This document shows positions 6,848 to 39,748 of a stretch of 64,000 nt of DNA, piece after piece. Within the stretch, counting starts at the first letter, position 1; every line of letters starts with the position of its first letter. The stretch is from Bacteroidales bacterium (GTDB lineage Bacteria; Bacteroidota; Bacteroidia; Bacteroidales; WCHB1-69), in assembly GCA_017617445.1 (NCBI GenBank), contig JAFZWE010000012.1, positions 50,818 through 114,817 of the forward strand, written 5' to 3'. Under the pieces are notes generated by a model, which was not told the DNA's origin, did no database searches, and saw only the letters and a list, made by a program, of their open reading frames with translations. The translations under genes were made by a program, and so were the position numbers.

Positions 6848-8692
6848 ATGTGTGGAATCGTAGCATATACGGGATGCCATCAGGCTTACCCGATTTTAAT
6901 TAAAGGACTTAAGCGTTTGGAATACCGCGGCTATGACAGCGCGGGAATCGCCCTCTCTCAGAAAGATAGCATCGCACTGTACAAATGCCGGGGCAGAGTG
7001 TCAGATCTAGACGAATTTTGTGCAGATAAAAACATCCAGTCTTGTACAGGCATTGGCCACACCCGATGGGCTACCCATGGGGAACCTAATACTCAAAACG
7101 CCCATCCCCATCTGTCGGCCGATGGGAAAATAGCGTTGATTCATAACGGTATCATTGAAAATTACCTCGTATTGAAACAGGAACTGATCAGCCGCGGATA
7201 CACATTCCAAAGCGATACTGACACGGAAGTTTTGGTGCATTTGATTGAGGATATCTTCAGGACAGAGGAAGTCTCCTTGCCAGAGGCGGTGAGAATTGCC
7301 CTCACCGGTGTGGTAGGAACGTATGCCCTGGCCATCCTCTCCACAGACCAGCCCGACCAGCTCATTCTCGCCAAAAAAGGAAGCCCTCTGCTGATTGGTG
7401 TGGGGGATAATGAGTATTTCATCGGTTCGGACGGGGCTCCCATTGTGGAATATACCCAAAAAGTGGTCTATCTGGAGGACGGAGATGTGGCAGTCGTTTC
7501 CCCAAACAAAAAGATGGAAATCCGCAACATCAATGAGGAGGGGAAAATCCGCCGCTATCAGCAAAAACTGCAATTGAATCTGGAACAATTGGAAAAGGGC
7601 GGTTTTGAACACTATATGCTGAAGGAGATTTTTGAACAGCCCAAAGCCATCCGCGACAGTATGCGAGGAAGACTGAATGTCAAGAAGGATGTCGTTTCCT
7701 TGGGAGGCATTATTGAATATGAAACCAAAATGATGAACGCCCGCCGCTTCATCATGGTGGCTTGCGGTACATCGTGGCACGCAGCTACTGTTGCCGAATA
7801 TTTGTTTGAAAGTTTGGTGCGTGTTCCAGTGGAAGTGGAGTACGCATCGGAGTTCAGATACCGTAACCCATTGATATATGAGGATGATGTGGTGATCGCC
7901 ATCTCCCAGTCTGGAGAAACAGCGGATACCATTGCTGCTGTGGAACTGGCCAAGTCCAAAGGGGCTACCGTGATTGGCATTTGCAATGTGGTGGGTTCCA
8001 CTTTGGCCCGAAACACCCATGCCGGTTCGTACACCCATGCCGGACCGGAAATAGGGGTAGCTTCCACCAAGGCTTTCACCGCCCAGGTGACCGTGCTCAC
8101 CCTGATGGCTCTCAGCCTCGCACGTAAAAAGGGAAATCTCGCCTTATCCGAATATCACCAGATCATCAACAACCTGGAAGAGATTCCCGCCAAGATGGAA
8201 GAGACGCTCAAACTCAACGAACAGATCAAGGAAATTGCCCACAGTTTTGTGGACAAACGCAATGCCATCTATTTGGGCCGGGGCATCAACTTCCCGGTGG
8301 CATTGGAGGGCGCGCTCAAGCTGAAGGAAATCTCATATATCCATGCGGAGGGCTATCCTTCTGCGGAAATGAAACACGGTCCCATCGCCTTGATTGATGA
8401 GGAAATGCCCGTAGTGGTACTGGCAACAGAGCAGGAGACATACGAGAAAACGGTCAGCAATATCCAGGAGGTGAAGGCTCGGAAAGGGAAAATCATTTCC
8501 GTGGTCACCCGTGGCGATGCATCTGTGAAAGCCATGTCTGATTACTGTATTGAAATTCCTGAAACTCTGGAACTGCTCACACCGCTGCTTTCCTGCGTAC
8601 CGTTGCAACTGCTGGCCTACCATGTGGCTGTGCTCAGAGGCTGCAATGTGGACAAGCCACGCAACCTGGCCAAATCTGTAAGCGTGGAATAA
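6848..8692 (+). CDS. glmS: Glutamine--fructose-6-phosphate aminotransferase
   Basis: The 614-aa ORF starts 'MCGIVAY' (Ntn catalytic Cys), has two SIS domains and ends '...KPRNLAKSVSVE'. Confidence 0.97.
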   Translation: MCGIVAYTGCHQAYPILIKGLKRLEYRGYDSAGIALSQKDSIALYKCRGRVSDLDEFCADKNIQSCTGIGHTRWATHGEPNTQNAHPHLSADGKIALIHNGIIENYLVLKQELISRGYTFQSDTDTEVLVHLIEDIFRTEEVSLPEAVRIALTGVVGTYALAILSTDQPDQLILAKKGSPLLIGVGDNEYFIGSDGAPIVEYTQKVVYLEDGDVAVVSPNKKMEIRNINEEGKIRRYQQKLQLNLEQLEKGGFEHYMLKEIFEQPKAIRDSMRGRLNVKKDVVSLGGIIEYETKMMNARRFIMVACGTSWHAATVAEYLFESLVRVPVEVEYASEFRYRNPLIYEDDVVIAISQSGETADTIAAVELAKSKGATVIGICNVVGSTLARNTHAGSYTHAGPEIGVASTKAFTAQVTVLTLMALSLARKKGNLALSEYHQIINNLEEIPAKMEETLKLNEQIKEIAHSFVDKRNAIYLGRGINFPVALEGALKLKEISYIHAEGYPSAEMKHGPIALIDEEMPVVVLATEQETYEKTVSNIQEVKARKGKIISVVTRGDASVKAMSDYCIEIPETLELLTPLLSCVPLQLLAYHVAVLRGCNVDKPRNLAKSVSVE

Positions 8693-33109: not shown

Positions 33110-35068
33110 TTATTCGTAATATTCAATCTCTCTTGTGGTTTTTATCGGTTTATTTCTGTCGCTTGAAATGGTAATTGTACGTGAAATCCAGTTGTCATAG
33201 CCATCATAATCATAAGTGATATTGAGCGAATTTCTGCCTTCTCCGCTGTATTGTATACGTTCTGCATCACCACGGGAATTATAGCTGATACTCCATGAAG
33301 AATTATATTCACCCGATGTTCTGGAACTTATAATCCTGTTTTCCGAATCATAATGGAAGGTAAGGGTCGTGGTAAACGTTTCATAGCTGTCATGATCGCA
33401 AACATATTCCTCACTATATTCATCCCAATACCCATTATACCTTTTTTCCAGGGATGTTATCTGTATCAGATTGTTATGCTCGTCATATTGGAAAGAAAAA
33501 GTATATTGGGCCCTCTCACCTTCTCCCACTATTTCGTAAATGTAGTCATCGGGACTGCCGGAAGTGATTTGTGTAGTAGAGGAGTACGGGATGGGATATT
33601 TTTTTGCCCAATGTTCACCATCATTTACAACACACCACAAGTCATCGTCTATAAACAGATTATATAAGAAGTAGTTTAGAGACACTTCACCCAATCCTCC
33701 ATCCATGATGGGTCTGAAGGGAAGTATCCTTTGTACATTTCCACTTTTGCTTTTGTTTACCAGCAGGTCGTTAGAGTAACTATAGGTCCATTCTAAGATT
33801 TCCCCATACTCATTGGATTCACCTTCCGTAAGATAACCCTCTTCGTCAAAAGCGAAGGAATAGGTACACTCGTCTCCATCTTGATCCACATAGTGTTCAA
33901 CGATAGACTTGACAGGGCCGCGAGCGTTGAAAAACTCCGAGGCGTGTCCTCCCACATATCTTTCCTCTATACTCTCTTCCACATTATATTTTTTGGCTTT
34001 CTTGTCTTTCATCCAAAACCATGCGGCAGTGCCTCCGCCCGCCAGCACCAACACGCCAATGATGAGACCGATGACCAGTCCCGTACGTTTTTTCTTCTTT
34101 TTCTTTGGAGTACTGGACTGCTGCGGGATTTCTGTTTGAGCTACCATAGTCTTGGAAGCGGGTTGGGGTGAAGGCTCTTCCATGCGGGTGCCATCTTCAT
34201 AGGAGTGTTGAGGTGCATTGGAAATGGAGCTGCCAACTGGCGGCAATGGCGGCAAGTTGGAGCGCACTGCAGTGGCATTGGGTGTGGCAGGGGTGCCGAA
34301 AGGCACCAGTGCGGGGCGCTCTTCCGGATTCTTGGCCAGATAGGGTTCCAGAAGCGATTGCCATTCGTAAGGGATGCCCGTTAAATCCAGCGGCATCTCC
34401 ACAATACATTTGCGGATCTGATAGTCGCTGGTGGTGGTGGTGTCATACGGGGTCTTGCCTTGGAGGAGATGCAAGAAAGTGACCGCCAAGGAGTAGAGGT
34501 CGGTTTTGCTGTCAATGTGTTTGGAATCTTCCACTTGTTCCGGACTCATGTACAGAAGGGTGCCCATGGTGGCGCCGGTCTGTGTCATCACCATGCCGTC
34601 CTGCACCTTGGCAATACCGAAATCCAGCAGTTTCACATTGCCCGCCATATCAATGAAGATGTTGGAGGGCTTGATGTCGCGGTGGACGACCCCCTTGTCA
34701 TGGGTGTAGTTCAAGGCGGAAACCAGCTGGTTCCACCACCGTTGCAGTTGTTCCTGCGTAAACCGTTCCCCGTTCTTCATACGGGAACTGAGGTCTTCGC
34801 CCTCAAGGTATTCCATGATCATGCAGGGACGACCGTCCAGAATGCCATAGTCATAGGCCTGCCTGATGTTCGGATGCTGGAGGGATACCATCACGCCAGC
34901 TTCATTGCGGAAGCGGTTCACGATATTCTCTTCGTCGCAGAATTTAGGCAGCAGAATTTTGACCGCAGCTGCTTTGCCCAAAGTGTTTTCAGCGTACCAC
35001 ACTTCCGCCATTCCCCCCTTCCCTAACGGGCGGAGCAGCGTGTAGCCGTTTACGTTTTTGTTTTGCAT
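33110..35068 (-). CDS. Hanks-type Ser/Thr protein kinase, single TM, C-terminal YD/RHS-like repeat ectodomain
   Basis: The 652-aa ORF has 'LGKGGMAEVW', 'AAVKIL', 'HRDIKPSNIF', 'DFGIAK' and 'YMSPEQ'. A poly-K stop-transfer segment is followed by the TM 'GLVIGLIIGVLVLAGGGTAAWFW' (aa 329-353). Repeats follow, such as 'YTFSFQYDEHNNLI', 'LTFHYDSENRII' and 'ITYDYDGYDNWI'. Confidence 0.9.
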   Translation of the reverse strand: MQNKNVNGYTLLRPLGKGGMAEVWYAENTLGKAAAVKILLPKFCDEENIVNRFRNEAGVMVSLQHPNIRQAYDYGILDGRPCMIMEYLEGEDLSSRMKNGERFTQEQLQRWWNQLVSALNYTHDKGVVHRDIKPSNIFIDMAGNVKLLDFGIAKVQDGMVMTQTGATMGTLLYMSPEQVEDSKHIDSKTDLYSLAVTFLHLLQGKTPYDTTTTSDYQIRKCIVEMPLDLTGIPYEWQSLLEPYLAKNPEERPALVPFGTPATPNATAVRSNLPPLPPVGSSISNAPQHSYEDGTRMEEPSPQPASKTMVAQTEIPQQSSTPKKKKKKRTGLVIGLIIGVLVLAGGGTAAWFWMKDKKAKKYNVEESIEERYVGGHASEFFNARGPVKSIVEHYVDQDGDECTYSFAFDEEGYLTEGESNEYGEILEWTYSYSNDLLVNKSKSGNVQRILPFRPIMDGGLGEVSLNYFLYNLFIDDDLWCVVNDGEHWAKKYPIPYSSTTQITSGSPDDYIYEIVGEGERAQYTFSFQYDEHNNLIQITSLEKRYNGYWDEYSEEYVCDHDSYETFTTTLTFHYDSENRIISSRTSGEYNSSWSISYNSRGDAERIQYSGEGRNSLNITYDYDGYDNWISRTITISSDRNKPIKTTREIEYYE

Positions 35069-35080
35069 ATTTAAAAAGTA

Positions 35081-35872
35081 TTAATACGTACCCACAATGA
35101 GCCTGATATCAAAATTCCCGTACATCACCGGGGTCTGATTGTTGCTTGTATATTTTGAAACATGGTCATGTACATATTTGAAAATCTCATACATAATGAT
35201 GCGGCCATTGCCATCCTCATCGGCACCTCCCTTGAGCCCCTGAAGCAGATAATAGGTGAAAACGCCATGATTCAGGCTCTCCTTATTCTCCCTGGAGACC
35301 TCATCATCCTTGCAGGACATCATCACCGCTACCTGCACATCTTTGAAAGAGGTGGATGTACTGGGGTGTGTCGCATTGGAGGTGGTCTTGAAAGAACCGG
35401 CAAAACACGCATCCGCAAAGATAAGCTTGGTTTTGGCCTTGGAAGATTTGAACTTGGCTTTCACATCACTGAACGACAGCGCACGGACAACACCGTAGTA
35501 GTCATCAGCATCCGTGTCATAAGCGACAAAATGGTCCTGAAAACCATGGCCGGAAAAGAAGAAGATGATTCTATCGGCATCAGTGGCCCTGCCAAAAGCC
35601 TTGTCCATGGCACTCAAAATATTGCTCCGGGTGGCCTGGTTGTTGGTGAGCAGGTAGATATTACCCGCCGGCACACTGCCCCCGTTTTCAGATTTCAAAT
35701 AGTTTGAAAATGCGACCGCATCATTGACCGTGCACTGCAAGTTCTGAACCTGAGATGAACTGTATTGGTTGATACCCACGATGACCGCATAGGTTTGGCC
35801 CGCTACCAGGACGGGAATCGTTATCGCTACAATGGCGAGGAATAAAAGTGCTTTTTTAATAAACATATCCAT
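35081..35872 (-). CDS. Caspase-family (peptidase C14) protease with N-terminal signal peptide or anchor
   Basis: ORF 35081..35953. The start is set at 'MDMFIKKALLFLAIVAITIPVLVAGQ', which removes the overlap with the upstream gene. It has 'YAVIVGINQY', 'FFFSGHG' (His109, codon at 35546..35548) and 'FADACFAGS' (Cys156, codon at 35405..35407). The C-terminal motifs 'GVFTYYLLQGLKGGADEDGNG' and 'QTPVMYG' are also present. Confidence 0.85.
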   Translation of the reverse strand: MDMFIKKALLFLAIVAITIPVLVAGQTYAVIVGINQYSSSQVQNLQCTVNDAVAFSNYLKSENGGSVPAGNIYLLTNNQATRSNILSAMDKAFGRATDADRIIFFFSGHGFQDHFVAYDTDADDYYGVVRALSFSDVKAKFKSSKAKTKLIFADACFAGSFKTTSNATHPSTSTSFKDVQVAVMMSCKDDEVSRENKESLNHGVFTYYLLQGLKGGADEDGNGRIIMYEIFKYVHDHVSKYTSNNQTPVMYGNFDIRLIVGTY

Positions 35873-35879
35873 GTTGCAT

Positions 35880-37253
35880 TTACTGTTGTTGCTGTTCTGT
35901 AGCGGCAGGATTCTCTGCATCTTCATTAACTGCATTATTGTTTTTATCACCATTAGAAGTAATTGGCTGTGTTACAGGAGGCACAGAAGTTGCAGGAGGT
36001 ATAGAAGCAGTGACATGTTTCCCTCGTTTTTTTGGGGTTTCTCTTTCAGACTGTGACTTTGAGTCTTTGGTATCCTGGTCACTGGCACTATTGTTGACTT
36101 TGTTGTCCTGTTTTTGTTTTTCCACTTGTAGTCCTGTCCCGTTTTTTCCTTTTGAAGATTGCTTGTGATCCGTTTTTATCGGGCTGATCACGTTCTCGCT
36201 TTGTTTCTTACCTGAGGAATGGGACCAATAATACCCCCCGATGCCAGCCAGCAGAAGCAGACACAGAAGTGCGATGAAAAGGTAGAGTTTGTTTCTGGAA
36301 GGTTTCGGGTCAGGTTGAGAGGTTGGGACAGACTGCGTGTTCTGAGCGGAAGTATCCGGGGCGGAAGTGTTCGGAGTGTTGCCAGCGGCGGTTACTGCTG
36401 CAGTGAAATCATCCTCTTCGGCAGTTTCTTCCTCAGCTTCCTGTTGTTGTTTGAGATACAGTGCAAAATCGTCGCGAATGTCCTGGAAGGTAGTCCATTC
36501 CAGTTCCTCATTCCGTCCGATGGAGAAGGCGTCACCCTCCTCAATCTCCACCAGCATGGCGGTATTGTTGTCCCGGGAGAGTTCCGCACACTGGGCCGCC
36601 ATCTTGTCACGTTTCTGTGCCAATGAAAGGGAGTTGTCGGCCATCAGTTCAATCAGTTCGCTGTCTCCCCAGCCCTCCACCACGCCGTCGGAGCAGAGGA
36701 GGAAGATGTCGCCGGCTTTCAGTTCGTCAATCCGCACGATGGCGGCCTTGCTGATCTTTCCGGTGCTGTTGGCGATGATGGCGTTGGAGATACGGTTGGA
36801 CATGGGGTGGAATCGGCCCGCCTCAAGGGTGATGTCATGGTAGCGCATCATCTCACCCACGAGCGACTGATCCCAGGTGTGCCACAATTTCTCCTCCGCG
36901 GGACGGTACAGATAGATGCGGCTGTCGCCGATATGTGCGGCGAACCACCCCTGCGGAGTCGGGAAGATGCCCGTAAAGGTCGTGCCCATCTTTTCCAGTT
37001 CCGGTTCCTTCTCCAGCAGCGCGTTCATGTCCTTCTGCGTGATGTCCAGCATCTGCTGGATGGTCTCCTTGCCCAAATCCGGGATAGGCTGTTCAAAATG
37101 CTTGAGCATCTCTTGGATGACGAAACCGCTGGCACGTTCGCCAGATACATGGCCCCCGACGCCGTCGCAGACCATCAGCACATGTTCCGAATAGCCCAAA
37201 CTGTCCTCATTATTGGAACGTTTGCCCAGTTGTGAAAAGCTTTCTATTTTCAT
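35880..37253 (-). CDS. PP2C-family Ser/Thr phosphatase, single TM, low-complexity extracytoplasmic tail
   Basis: The 457-aa ORF has 'NEDS', 'VCDGVGGH', 'LLCSDGV' and 'DNNTAMLVEI'. The TM is 'LYLFIALLCLLLLAGIGGYYW' (aa 323-343), followed by a K/Q/S/N-rich tail. Confidence 0.88.
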   Translation of the reverse strand: MKIESFSQLGKRSNNEDSLGYSEHVLMVCDGVGGHVSGERASGFVIQEMLKHFEQPIPDLGKETIQQMLDITQKDMNALLEKEPELEKMGTTFTGIFPTPQGWFAAHIGDSRIYLYRPAEEKLWHTWDQSLVGEMMRYHDITLEAGRFHPMSNRISNAIIANSTGKISKAAIVRIDELKAGDIFLLCSDGVVEGWGDSELIELMADNSLSLAQKRDKMAAQCAELSRDNNTAMLVEIEEGDAFSIGRNEELEWTTFQDIRDDFALYLKQQQEAEEETAEEDDFTAAVTAAGNTPNTSAPDTSAQNTQSVPTSQPDPKPSRNKLYLFIALLCLLLLAGIGGYYWSHSSGKKQSENVISPIKTDHKQSSKGKNGTGLQVEKQKQDNKVNNSASDQDTKDSKSQSERETPKKRGKHVTASIPPATSVPPVTQPITSNGDKNNNAVNEDAENPAATEQQQQ

Positions 37254-37267
37254 TATTTTGTTTTTTA

Positions 37268-37939
37268 CTAACTGATGATCACCTTTACCTGAGTGTGTCC
37301 CATGGTAATCACACTACCATTTTCCAAATAAACTTCCTGTCCCTCTTTCAGGGGTTTGCCGTTCAACATTGTGCCATTTTTGTCCTCATGTCTTTTGATG
37401 GTGAACATGTCCGCGCTCTTTCTTGTGATGATGCAGTGGGGCCTGCTCATGTATGCGTCCGTAGTGTTGATTTCAACATCGGCGAGGTGGCTTGCACTTT
37501 TCCTTCCCACGATGCTTCGGTCAAGTTGCACGAGCAGAGTCTGGGCTGGGGTGTCCGCATTGGGCTGCACCTCCAGCCTTAGCTCCTTGTGGGAGGAAGG
37601 GGTAACGATTACCGTTTCACTGCCTTTATTCTGTGCTGGCGGAGTACCAGGCACAATGGTTTCTGCAGAATCGCTGCCTGAAGCAGGAGTCTGTGGCAGC
37701 GGGGTCTGCATGGGAACGGGGCTGGGAGCTGGGGTTTTCACCACACGGACTGGCTTGTGCAATTCCGGCAAGGAGACTTCCCTTCCGCTCAGCAGCAACG
37801 ACTTGTTTTCCTCTGTCATGCAAATTTCAATGGGGCGTTTGCATTTGGGACAGGTGAAGTTGATATAACGGCCCACCGGGATATTGGCCGGCAGGCCAAA
37901 TTTGATTTTGTAGTTGCAATTACAAATAACTGTGGCCAT
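37268..37939 (-). CDS. Zn-ribbon / Pro-rich linker / FHA domain protein
   Basis: The 223-aa ORF has an N-terminal 'CNCN...CPKC' four-Cys ribbon. The C-terminal FHA signature is 'IVGRKS...SRPHCII...NGTMLNGKPL'. Confidence 0.85.
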   Translation of the reverse strand: MATVICNCNYKIKFGLPANIPVGRYINFTCPKCKRPIEICMTEENKSLLLSGREVSLPELHKPVRVVKTPAPSPVPMQTPLPQTPASGSDSAETIVPGTPPAQNKGSETVIVTPSSHKELRLEVQPNADTPAQTLLVQLDRSIVGRKSASHLADVEINTTDAYMSRPHCIITRKSADMFTIKRHEDKNGTMLNGKPLKEGQEVYLENGSVITMGHTQVKVIIS

Positions 37940-37941
37940 AA

Positions 37942-38961
37942 TTATACTAAATCGTCAACATTCATATTGCTGTCAATTGGGAGGTTGGGATCCCAGTTGA
38001 TGTCAGCTGTATAATCAATTTCATCATTTGAAAAGTCATCGGAGGGACTGATGGGCAACTCTTCCATGGGGGAGGGTTCGTAAAGCTCAGCGGCCAAGAC
38101 ATCCACCGGGTCAAGGATCAGGTCCAGGTGTCCGTCACCGTCAATGTCAGCCAAAACGTCCACCATGTCGTTACCGTTGGCATCCACCAGGGCGATATCC
38201 GCCATGCCGTCTCCGTCAACATCTATGGGAATGATTTCATCCGTAGAGAACACGGTCTGCACAGGTTCTTCCAGGAACAACGGTTCCGCTTCCTCCTGCT
38301 GGGCCAGGTAATCGTTGTAGTCATCCTCGGTTCTGTTGACAGCAGCAAAATAGTCGTCTTTTTCATCGGCAGACATCTGGTCCCACTCCTCTTTATAGTA
38401 GGTGCCGTAGGATTTGCCGTGCCAATGGAAGATGCCACCGGGCCCGACTTCATGTCGGGCGGCAGCAAAGGCTTGTGAAAAACTCATGTCATCGCTGACA
38501 TTTTCGGCCACCTGGAGGCAACCTTCAGCAGGTTGGTAGGAAGTGGAAATATCGATATCGTCCGACAGAGATATCTCCACATCGTCTTCCAGCAAATCCT
38601 CGTTAATCACGATGTTGGGGGCATCCTCCTGAACGTCAGCCGATCGGGCCGCAGCACTGTTTTCCGCCTCGCGAAAAGCTGTTTCACGAAAGTTGTCGGT
38701 TTCGGCTGCGTTGGCTGCATGGATGGCCGCACCACCCACGGCAACCGCTGCCATACCCCCACCGATGACTGCTGCCTTGACGCCCACACCGGACCCTCCC
38801 TTGGCGGATTTTCCCGAGGACTTGGAGTTGCTAATGATGGTGTGCTCCTCGCACGCGCTACCGGATTTTACGGATTTCTCCTCTGTGCCACCGTCAAACA
38901 CGGTGGTTTTATCACAGGAACTGGAAATCATGGTCTTTTCTTCTTGGTTATTTGTATTCAT
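37942..38961 (-). CDS. Acidic single-TM protein with three DxDxDG-type loops, unknown family
   Basis: The 339-aa ORF has a Gly/Ala-rich TM 'GVKAAVIGGGMAAVAVGGAAIHAA' (aa 59-84). It has a conserved-looking block 'MSFSQAFAAARHEVGPGGIFHWHGKSYGTYYKEEW'. The loops are 'DVDGDGMAD', 'DANGNDMVD' and 'DIDGDGHLD'. Confidence 0.7.
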   Translation of the reverse strand: MNTNNQEEKTMISSSCDKTTVFDGGTEEKSVKSGSACEEHTIISNSKSSGKSAKGGSGVGVKAAVIGGGMAAVAVGGAAIHAANAAETDNFRETAFREAENSAAARSADVQEDAPNIVINEDLLEDDVEISLSDDIDISTSYQPAEGCLQVAENVSDDMSFSQAFAAARHEVGPGGIFHWHGKSYGTYYKEEWDQMSADEKDDYFAAVNRTEDDYNDYLAQQEEAEPLFLEEPVQTVFSTDEIIPIDVDGDGMADIALVDANGNDMVDVLADIDGDGHLDLILDPVDVLAAELYEPSPMEELPISPSDDFSNDEIDYTADINWDPNLPIDSNMNVDDLV

Positions 38962-38989: not shown

Positions 38990-39718
38990 TTACTTTTTAA
39001 ATTGCGCATTGCACTTGGGATTGGGACAACCAGAGGCCTGAATGATTTTCCAATGCTGGTTGAGGTTGAATTTCGTTCCACACTTGGGACAACAGTATTT
39101 GTCCTGATACTTCAACAGCAAATCCAGGCTCTGCTCCTTCACATTCTCCTGCTTGTGATTTGTGGGAAGGAATGCGACCAATGCGGTCAACACGGAGGTG
39201 ACCGACATGGCTACAAGTCGTGCAGTGGATGCTGCCGAAGATTTTTCCCCGAAAATCAAACCGGAAAAGCCTATGAAACACAGACCTATGACAGCCCCTG
39301 ACAACATGACAATGTTGCGCGGCATGGACATCTTTTTTTGGAATTTACTATTAAGTTTGTTCAGTTCCTCCATATAGTTCTCATACACGGGAATAACTTC
39401 TTGCTGGAATTCACGGGAATAGTCTGTAGTGATCAGGTCAAATATCTTCCGAACATTCAACTTGAACCCCATTGCTTCATCCATACAGCCCAAATAAACA
39501 GTGTCATCTTTGTCCAACGGCCCGCTTGAAGCCATGCGAAGTCCGTTGACGAAAGTGCCGTTGCTCGCCTTCACCTCCTGGATAGAGATGGATTGTGCGT
39601 CTCTGTCTATTAACAATTTGGCATGATGTCTTCCCACCAATTTCCTGTCAGCCGGCACAGTGATGCAACCTTTTCCCACATCCTCTCTGCCGATTTTTAT
39701 TTCAACAATATTAGACAT
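38990..39718 (-). CDS. FHA domain / two TM segments / C-terminal Zn-ribbon protein
   Basis: The 242-aa ORF has the FHA signature 'IKIGRED...VGRHHAKLL...SNGTFVNG'. The TM segments are 'IVMLSGAVIGLCFIGFSGLIF' and 'LVAMSVTSVLTALVAFL'. The ribbon is 'CCPKCG...CPNPKC'. Confidence 0.85.
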   Translation of the reverse strand: MSNIVEIKIGREDVGKGCITVPADRKLVGRHHAKLLIDRDAQSISIQEVKASNGTFVNGLRMASSGPLDKDDTVYLGCMDEAMGFKLNVRKIFDLITTDYSREFQQEVIPVYENYMEELNKLNSKFQKKMSMPRNIVMLSGAVIGLCFIGFSGLIFGEKSSAASTARLVAMSVTSVLTALVAFLPTNHKQENVKEQSLDLLLKYQDKYCCPKCGTKFNLNQHWKIIQASGCPNPKCNAQFKK

Positions 39719-39740: not shown

Positions 39741-39748
39741 CAAAAATA
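39741..39748 (-). promoter_or_regulatory. -7 box (TATTTTTG), proximal candidate for the FHA/PP2C/caspase/kinase operon
   Basis: The plus strand reads caaaaata, 22 nt upstream of the ATG at 39718. Confidence 0.5.

Follow-up and report, generated by a model that had tools for sequence, protein, structure and literature searches.

The functions of caspase homologues in bacteria are largely unknown, and most discussion of them assumes death or defence roles in the cytoplasm. A locus of a Bacteroidales bacterium (GenBank assembly GCA_017617445.1, contig JAFZWE010000012.1, positions 50,818 to 114,817; this stretch of 64,000 nucleotides is called the window, and coordinates are given within it) raises the question whether such a protease may work on the outer side of the cytoplasmic membrane, and what would then connect it to the cytoplasm. 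Here, a gene for a Peptidase_C14 (caspase/metacaspase-family) protein, henceforth C14, lies among genes for a Hanks-type Ser/Thr kinase, a PP2C phosphatase, two FHA proteins and a protein of 339 amino acids that we call X. A sequence-only reading had proposed that the protease is exported, and is thereby separated by the membrane from the catalytic domains of the kinase and the phosphatase. Our analysis leads us to consider it very probable that the gene encodes a small C14 cysteine protease with an intact catalytic dyad and a cleavable Sec signal, which resides in the periplasm and belongs to a kinase/PP2C/FHA/X operon with a proposed coupling across the membrane. The gene and its two predicted parts are as follows.

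35081..35872, minus strand: precursor of a Peptidase_C14 (caspase/metacaspase-family) protein, 263 amino acids from the start at MDMF (Pfam PF00656, AlphaFold2 model, Foldseek matches)
35798..35872, minus strand: predicted Sec/signal peptidase I signal peptide, residues 1-25 (mean hydropathy over 19 residues, detached helix in the AlphaFold2 model, conservation in 48 of 48 relatives, Gln at +1)
35081..35797, minus strand: predicted mature periplasmic protease, Gln26 to Tyr263 plus the stop codon (His109 and Cys156 invariant; ends at the last strand of the fold; no extra Pfam domain)

The open reading frame (ORF) on the minus strand is open over 35081-35953, i.e. 290 codons. A collection of 5.8 billion sequences held one identical protein, from a Bacteroidales metagenome-assembled genome, and the next relative was 44% identical. 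In the NCBI annotation of the identical protein (P0001), translation starts 18 codons upstream of MDMF, giving a product of 281 amino acids that begins with MKMQ and overlaps the PP2C gene (region 35873-35953 of the window). From the MDMF start the protein begins MDMFIKKALLFLAIVAITIPVLVAGQTYAVIVGINQY and, as had been claimed for this start, the overlap disappears: the stop codon TAA of PP2C occupies 35880-35882 and the ATG of MDMF 35872-35870, leaving a gap of 7 nt. Homologues start 2-10 residues ahead of the hydrophobic core, and the upstream extension has no counterpart in them. We favour the MDMF or MF start over the longer forms; the starts further upstream (35953 and the 281-residue form of NCBI) were rejected, as they overlap PP2C, are unconserved and keep the export signal anyway. 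The earlier supposition that a start at Met 35953 would yield a cytoplasmic protein, and so overturn export, fails, because even then this would be the sole hydrophobic segment, with none before it, and would serve as a signal anchor.

The N-terminus has the tripartite layout of a signal peptidase I substrate: an n-region MDMFIKK, an h-region ALLFLAIVAITI of 12 residues and a c-region PVLVAG of 6 residues, which opens with the helix-breaking Pro20. Cleavage is predicted between Gly25 and Gln26, with Val at -3, Gly at -1 and Gln at +1, by a home-made rule for such signals whose requirements (basic n-region, h-region of 7-15 residues, small residues at -1 and -3) agree with the observed sequence. 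The Kyte-Doolittle 19-residue mean (KD19) over residues 8-26 was 2.37, as compared to 2.32 and 2.34 for the transmembrane (TM) helices of the kinase and PP2C, respectively. In the AlphaFold2 model residues 2-17 form a detached helix and the first caspase strand runs from residue 27, so that the caspase fold begins two residues past the predicted cleavage site. A rule-based scan of the long ORFs of the window placed the C14 signal among the best ranked, and six other top-scoring signal ORFs also carry Gln at +1; one of these six reads as TolC-like. Gln at +1 of signal peptidase I substrates is known in Bacteroidetes as the Q-rule (PMC5837995), with which VAG|Q of C14 and the six other ORFs are consistent. 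Residues 1-25 contain no lipobox Cys, and neither Por_Secre_tail, the sorting domain of the type IX secretion system (T9SS), nor any other additional Pfam domain was matched, the protein ending with the last caspase strand.

The export signal is a property of the family. Nearly all of 46 aligned homologues (32-47% identity) open in one way: Met and a basic residue, then a hydrophobic run of about 12-15 residues, then a small-x-small site and, immediately behind it, the TYAVIVG strand. The six operon proteins of the window served as queries against the complete ORF set of 80 genome loci, and every one of the 48 short C14 genes consisting of a signal and a bare core had the export signal 1-6 residues before the core. 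A script classed 40 of these as signal peptidase I-like, 6 as lipobox-like and 2 as fusions of PP2C, TM segment and C14, while inspection by eye gave about 39, about 7 and 2; the approximately 7 lipobox-like orthologues are from Cytophagales (e.g. VSFGC|R and FLGC|R).

The fusions bear directly on topology. In Runella, PP2C and C14 share one ORF, in which PP2C (residues 10-250) is followed by PPPxKK, a hydrophobic segment and C14, with neither a stop codon nor a start codon ahead of the hydrophobic segment. Such fusions were found at L021:1648-3216 and L064:9146-10711 among the 80 loci, and a database search yielded 12 fusion clusters (P0241-P0252) of 522-529 amino acids, 49-93% identical to the query, from Runella and relatives. 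In all eight that were inspected, the stretch joining the two domains contains a K/R patch, a hydrophobic run of 18-20 residues and an AxA|Q-like site, the last of which suggests that the fusions may be cleaved as well. Since a single membrane segment separates the fused domains, phosphatase and protease would lie on opposite sides of the membrane, and the fusion itself argues that the two proteins work together. Because the signal is kept family-wide and the natural fusions have just one hydrophobic segment, the C14 protease is almost certainly exported and predicted to work in the periplasm, and its placement across the membrane from the catalytic domains of the kinase and PP2C, as judged from sequence, is supported. 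Thus the three proposals of the sequence-only reading on this point, namely a Sec signal or N-terminal anchor, a C14 core directly behind it ('YAVIVGINQY', 'SGHG', 'DACFAG') and a protease facing away from the kinase and phosphatase domains, were supported.

The position of the partners was predicted from the other five genes of the operon. The six genes, all on the minus strand, are separated in order by 28, 2, 14, 7 and 12 nt and are arranged as FHA-2TM-Zn-ribbon, X, Zn-ribbon-FHA, PP2C-TM, C14 and kinase-TM-ectodomain.

38990..39718, minus strand: FHA domain (residues 8-77; 6.8e-8), two TM helices (residues 136-154 and 168-186; KD19 peaks 2.21 and 1.94) and a C-terminal CxxC...CxxxxC Zn ribbon, the latter read from the sequence
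37942..38961, minus strand: protein X, 339 amino acids (248 homologues, no Pfam family; 15 invariant core residues; order in the AlphaFold2 model; isoelectric point)
37268..37939, minus strand: Zn ribbon, Pro-rich linker and FHA domain (1.4e-12), without a hydrophobic peak, predicted cytoplasmic
35880..37253, minus strand: PP2C (residues 1-235; Pfam PP2C_2, 4e-12), acidic linker, TM helix (residues 323-341, nt 36231-36287) and a Lys/Ser-rich low-complexity tail (residues 342-457)
33110..35068, minus strand: Hanks-type Ser/Thr kinase (residues 9-253; Pkinase, 2.6e-49), Pro-rich linker, KKKKKKR, TM helix (residues 331-349, nt 34022-34078) and ectodomain

The catalytic domains of both the kinase and PP2C lie N-terminal to a single TM helix, in agreement with what had been read from the window, and none of 71 kinases or 41 PP2Cs in the related loci has a TM helix ahead of the catalytic domain. 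KKKKKKR stands ahead of the TM helix of the kinase. The kinase ectodomain (303 amino acids, nt 33113-34021) is beta-rich and gave borderline scores with DUF4595 (34.0 bits against 34.2) and RHS_repeat (21.9 against 22), and Pfam found no PASTA domain in it. No kinase in the 80 loci aligns past residue 380 of the window kinase; ectodomains of kinases in other loci are of the FGE-sulfatase type or TonB_C. The PP2C matched NCBIfam Stp1/IreP at 1.7e-38, under the cut-off, and its tail has an isoelectric point (pI) of 9.2; TM helix and tail are absent in 15 of 41 PP2C orthologues. The two TM helices of the first FHA protein predict that both its ends are cytoplasmic, and 23 of 24 orthologues of the Zn-ribbon-FHA protein have no TM helix.

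The C14 domain is a predicted protease with an intact catalytic dyad. Residues 28-252 matched PF00656 with 84.9 bits against a cut-off of 21.4; 'SGHG' holds His109 (codon 35546-35548) and 'DACFAG' holds Cys156 (codon 35405-35407). The AlphaFold2 model (predicted local distance difference test, pLDDT, 91.7) has the caspase-hemoglobinase fold of clan CD, and Foldseek returned MALT1 paracaspase, the yeast metacaspase Yca1, legumain and GSU0716 with E values of about 1e-11 and TM-scores of 0.6-0.66, while profile searches matched AtMC4, Yca1 and TbMCA2 at E values of 4e-11 to 2e-8. The protein has no prodomain, no T9SS sorting domain and no lipobox. His109, Cys156, Asp51, Ser107 and Asp154 are invariant in the 46 homologues. 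From the invariance of the two catalytic residues the family appears to be under selection as an enzyme. The remaining three residues align with the metacaspase motifs ND, SGHG and DxC, in which the S1 residues Asp95, Ser156 and Asp211 of TbMCA2 sit (PMC4357240); on this basis we infer cleavage after Arg or Lys.

Protein X is a conserved membrane protein family of its own. Pfam gave just weak FG-GAP, EF-hand and DUF7167 matches and no family, and Foldseek against the PDB gave nothing below E = 2.8. From the N-terminus, X consists of a Thr motif (DKTTVFDG in the window, family consensus ExTI/V in the alignment), a Lys-rich patch, an uncharged, Gly/Ala-rich TM-like segment of about 20 residues in the alignment (residues 63-81, nt 38719-38775), an acidic linker, a conserved core (residues 145-225, nt 38287-38529), DxDxDG repeats and an acidic C-terminal tail. 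The core has 15 invariant residues within VSDDMSFSQAFAAARxEVGPGGxFxWHGxxYGTYYxxEWDxMS, and the AlphaFold2 model orders residues 145-225 (pLDDT about 97) and 240-285 (about 80) only. Beyond the hydrophobic segment the pI is 4.05, with 8 Lys/Arg in 258 residues. In 28-31 of 39 X orthologues the core has a TM-like segment ahead of it, and the Lys-rich flank on its N-terminal side and the acidic flank on its C-terminal side favour an orientation with the N-terminus inside and the C-terminus outside, which is probable. Judged by the general properties of FHA domains, the Thr motif is a plausible candidate both for phosphorylation by the kinase and for FHA docking. The sequence AAAR occurs twice in X (residues 102-105 and 166-169), Arg169 being invariant and followed by EVGPGG; that an Arg-specific protease might cut at AAAR/Arg169 is pure speculation.

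The association of these genes recurs in Bacteroidales (Prevotella, Bacteroides, Muribaculaceae, Porphyromonadaceae and Tannerella), in Cytophagales (Spirosoma, Larkinella, Fibrisoma, Runella, Persicitalea and Rhabdobacter) and in Chitinophagales. Spirosoma linguale has FHA-X-FHA-PP2C-C14-kinase in the order of the window, and on a rumen-type Bacteroidales contig three kinase genes follow X-FHA-PP2C-C14. Among lineages the gene order is shuffled, C14 standing after PP2C, after X or upstream of kinases but staying nearby. When linkage was defined as at least 3 of 5 partner families within 10 kb, with flanks of at least 5 kb on both sides, 31 of 33 signal-bearing C14 genes were linked to the module, whereas 23 of 26 multi-domain C14 genes without a signal beside the core, mostly from Saprospiraceae, had none of the partner families. 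Starting from X, 13 of 18 metagenome loci with flanks of at least 6 kb contained C14.

How, then, might a protease outside be coupled to a relay inside? Signal peptidase I would probably cut between Gly25 and Gln26 and release a bare caspase domain of about 238 residues into the periplasm. C14 would be co-transcribed with the Hanks-type kinase, PP2C, the two FHA proteins and the single-pass protein X. Kinase, phosphatase, FHA domains and the Thr-bearing N-terminus of X would lie inside; the outer side would hold the protease along with X's conserved acidic domain and the kinase's variable ectodomain. The kinase would place a phosphate on the Thr motif at the N-terminus of X, a mark for the FHA proteins to read, while the protease would act on, or be held by, the outer domain of X; the kinase ectodomain and the PP2C tail are less probable targets. 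Limited proteolysis in the periplasm would thereby be coupled to cytoplasmic Ser/Thr phospho-signalling. Coupling through the kinase ectodomain, the PP2C tail or the acidic protein X had all been proposed before, and the three routes fared differently. The kinase ectodomain as a conserved docking partner was rejected, since none of the kinases in the 80 loci shares it beyond residue 380, and about one third of orthologues lack the TM helix and tail of PP2C. X was kept as the best candidate, as a conserved family that combines a Thr motif in the cytoplasm with a TM segment and a conserved domain outside: because the ectodomain is unconserved and the tail often missing, while X is conserved together with C14, X is to our reading the likeliest link across the membrane.

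Several points weigh against this picture. Contact of C14 with X, the kinase or the PP2C tail is something that we infer, the cleavage call is rule-based, such that the signal could persist uncleaved as an anchor, and the predicted P1 specificity derives from alignment. The TM segment of X is Gly/Ala-rich with a KD19 mean of 1.63 and is not a helix in the AlphaFold model; with such weak hydrophobicity and no modelled helix, the outer location of the X domain is probable, not certain. Further, C14 was absent within 10 kb in 5 of the 18 X-centred loci, and likewise at one further X locus. Loci with X, FHA, PP2C and kinase genes and no C14 imply that the protease is dispensable for the core pathway; C14 is thus a frequent accessory of the X/FHA/PP2C/kinase core and not an obligate part of it.

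The form in which the protease faces the periplasm is open to a different interpretation, in which the signal is an uncleaved anchor (a lipid anchor in some lineages) that tethers the caspase to the inner membrane beside the kinase, PP2C and X. The uncharged stretch up to Ala24, 17 residues, is near TM length, the same segment is an internal TM helix in the Runella-type fusions, about 7 Cytophagales orthologues have lipobox-like sites, and just 1-6 residues lie between the segment and the first strand. Yet Pro20 divides the stretch into an h-region of 12 and a c-region of 6 residues, with Val at -3, Gly at -1 and Gln at +1, which is the pattern of cleaved signal peptidase I substrates in this genome (PMC5837995), and even the fusions retain the AxA|Q site; we therefore consider permanent anchoring unlikely. 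Far less probable still, to the point of being nearly negligible, is a cytoplasmic caspase produced from an upstream Met (35953 or the 281-residue NCBI start) and phosphorylated directly by the kinase. The frame is open to 35953 and the public annotation (P0001) does have 281 amino acids, but the extension would overlap the last 24 codons of PP2C and lacks a counterpart in homologues. Moreover, the longer n-region would leave one KK-flanked hydrophobic segment, a type II anchor with the domain outside, and the fusions put C14 past a TM helix that follows a cytoplasmic PP2C.

Regarding what the periplasmic protease does, we tentatively suggest a trans-envelope device, in which the caspase and the cytoplasmic phospho-relay communicate via X, and clipping or sequestering the outer domain of X sets or resets the phospho-signal, or the reverse; X would offer it a cytoplasmic phospho-Thr/FHA docking motif and an outer domain with Ca-binding-like repeats. 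This is possible, though we would not put it higher, and two other roles appear to us less likely than it. Caspase-family proteases act as effectors in several bacterial conflict systems (PMC7159879), and by analogy kinase signalling, for example on phage infection, might free or activate the periplasmic caspase to destroy the envelope and lyse the cell. Several paralogous kinases often occur in one locus, their ectodomains being variable; at one locus these ectodomains appear to be the target of a diversity-generating retroelement. Furthermore, the kinase domain matches the PADLOC PD-T4-6 and Mad6 kinase models. These matches are generic, however, and no system-specific PADLOC or NCBIfam model fits; the neighbours in the window look housekeeping by reading of ORF translations alone (sigma-70, Tex, KDO-8-P synthase, oxoglutarate oxidoreductase), phage matches are absent with one plasmid copy found, and the module, kept across orders in the manner of a core function, often occurs without the protease. 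A defence or programmed-death effector is thus improbable in our view. Alternatively, C14 may stand upstream as a periplasmic co-sensor or activator that binds or clips the kinase ectodomain, in a manner reminiscent of TagR and PpkA in type VI threonine phosphorylation. The topology would follow the same logic, an exported partner being encoded beside a TM Hanks kinase, PP2C and FHA proteins, and in the window as well as in many loci the C14 gene lies directly ahead of the kinase gene. But ectodomains differ among lineages while C14 is conserved, and in many Bacteroidales C14 adjoins X rather than the kinase, so that this role, too, seems to us rather doubtful.

Comparison with known systems revealed several partial likenesses. 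Clusters of FHA, PP2C and Hanks-kinase genes with membrane-bound members are known from Actinobacteria (fhaA-fhaB-pstP-rodA-pbpA-pknA-pknB) and Firmicutes (Stp1/Stk1). Like the window, they have a pair of FHA proteins of which one is membrane-bound, a TM-anchored PP2C with a tail outside, and a Hanks kinase with TM helix and ectodomain; in the Actinobacterial cluster, genes for periplasm-facing enzymes likewise lie between phosphatase and kinase. The window module differs in lacking PASTA, RodA and PbpA and in having C14 and X as its outward partners. Measured as a PknB/PstP/FhaA/FhaB-type system, it has the cluster of TM Hanks kinase, PP2C and FHA proteins, and has neither PASTA domains nor the pair of SEDS (shape, elongation, division and sporulation) protein and class B penicillin-binding protein. 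The specific NCBIfam families tried all scored far below their equivalog cut-offs: Stp1 (132 against 230), PknB-PASTA (242 against 450), FhaB (18-25 against 125) and TagH (29 against 120). The EACC1-associated caspase family (NF047832) also failed, with 104 bits against a cut-off of 140, and Pfam and NCBIfam gave no resemblance of the six module proteins to EACC1 partners. In the type VI threonine phosphorylation pathway, PpkA, PppA and Fha1 act with periplasmic TagR. The module resembles it in its TM Hanks kinase, PP2C, FHA reader and exported periplasmic accessory; it differs in that none of the six module proteins, to which the scan was limited, matched a model specific for type VI secretion, and in that the exported partner is a protease and not TagR-like. 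A named defence system was not recovered with PADLOC-DB v2 either, as matches were confined to generic models, one for a kinase domain and one for a caspase, and the first and second FHA proteins, X and PP2C had no match.

Among proteases, gingipains are enzymes with Arg/Lys specificity. Together with PorU and the C11 clostripain-like and legumain-like C13 proteases of Bacteroidota, gingipains (C25) are clan CD cysteine proteases that share the fold of C14 and function extracytoplasmically (PMC4357240). The window C14 differs from them in its MEROPS family, in the absence of a prodomain, a T9SS C-terminal domain and adhesin domains, and in its location in a signalling operon and not in a nutritional or virulence locus. 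Closer are the metacaspase-like proteins and orthocaspases (MEROPS C14, clan CD), which have the caspase-hemoglobinase fold, the His-Cys dyad, the acidic S1 residues and a single N-terminal hydrophobic helix in common with it; among 398 single-domain prokaryotic metacaspases, 46 were reported to have one N-terminal helix, which the authors took for a possible signal peptide (Asplund-Samuelsson et al. 2012, PMC3501461). In comparison, the subfamily of the window is a bare core after the signal, about 240-290 amino acids long, module-linked in 31 of 33 cases and sometimes fused to PP2C. Neither FHA nor phosphatase turned up in a term search of PMC3501461; FHA does appear in Kaur et al. 2020 and Zhang et al. 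2012, but only in other contexts, and full-text literature searches found no description of an operon of caspase, FHA, PP2C and kinase. Exported C14 proteins and FHA/PP2C/kinase modules are each known, and their combination appears undescribed. The sequence-only reading had called the architecture unusual; exported C14 had been noted before (PMC3501461), and the module is phylum-wide and not a one-off.

The window thus points to a well-defined C14 subfamily, predicted to be periplasmic, which is genetically tied, and sometimes fused, to a Hanks kinase/PP2C/FHA pathway. If the trans-envelope device is real, bacterial caspase homologues would gain a role in cell-envelope signalling that is distinct from cell death. 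X would be a new conserved membrane protein family and a likely kinase substrate and FHA target. The module is present in rumen and human-gut metagenome contigs and in cultured Spirosoma linguale, Runella aurantiaca, Larkinella and Fibrisoma limi. With tractable carriers and a short list of candidate substrates (X, the kinase ectodomains and the PP2C tail), the question of what bacterial caspases do becomes experimentally concrete.

Some further observations concern expression and sensing. A scan for sigma-70 promoters and terminators, which is ill-suited to Bacteroidota promoters, gave 15 promoter-like sites against 8.7 expected (standard deviation 2.8), somewhat above chance, and 7 terminator-like sites against 8.4 expected, which is chance level. 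The sequence TATTTTTG occurs at 39741-39748 on the minus strand, with the start codon (ATG) of the cluster's first gene 23 nt downstream. We take it to fit the Bacteroides -7 promoter consensus TAnnTTTG, with TTTG further upstream. In many Bacteroidales loci a stand-alone LytTR DNA-binding protein of 120-145 amino acids is encoded just upstream of the module or beside C14 (L033, L040, L049, L056, L070, L071, L073, L076, L079, L081, L085-L087, L100, L104, L113, L123, L124 and L165), and it could be the transcriptional output of the module; no LytTR model matched in the window. Three Bacteroidales contigs from human-gut metagenomes (L133, L149 and L151) have five or six paralogous TM kinases around X-C14-FHA-PP2C, which suggests many sensors feeding one core.

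Runella rosea carries FHA-hypothetical-FHA-PP2C-caspase on a 76-kb record labelled as a non-mobilizable plasmid (NZ_CP030851.1; L088, 1486-6775); no kinase is annotated in the stretch examined, where the names given by the NCBI annotation pipeline (PGAP) are generic. A mobile-element origin of the module was rejected, this being the single plasmid copy and phage matches being absent. In Saprospiraceae, Lewinellaceae and Haliscomenobacter, long C14 proteins of 420-670 amino acids occur in tandem pairs with the module not nearby (L035, L043, L047, L048, L050, L054, L058, L063, L068 and L084). Saprospiraceae relatives of this long type have Pfam MORN repeats (PF02493), and these proteins seem to be a different, expanded class of C14.

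Finally, one copy of the module, L087:2326-21395 (JGI 3300056999, Ga0558716_02937), contains a diversity-generating retroelement with a reverse transcriptase, an HRDC protein and a template-like repeat. The repeat (7782-8020) is rich in Asn codons and 60-70% identical to the 3' end of a gene with an FGE-sulfatase domain, and repeats of the same families extend over the 3' ends of three kinase-FGE genes as well. The kinase ectodomains at this locus appear to be hypervariable receptors.

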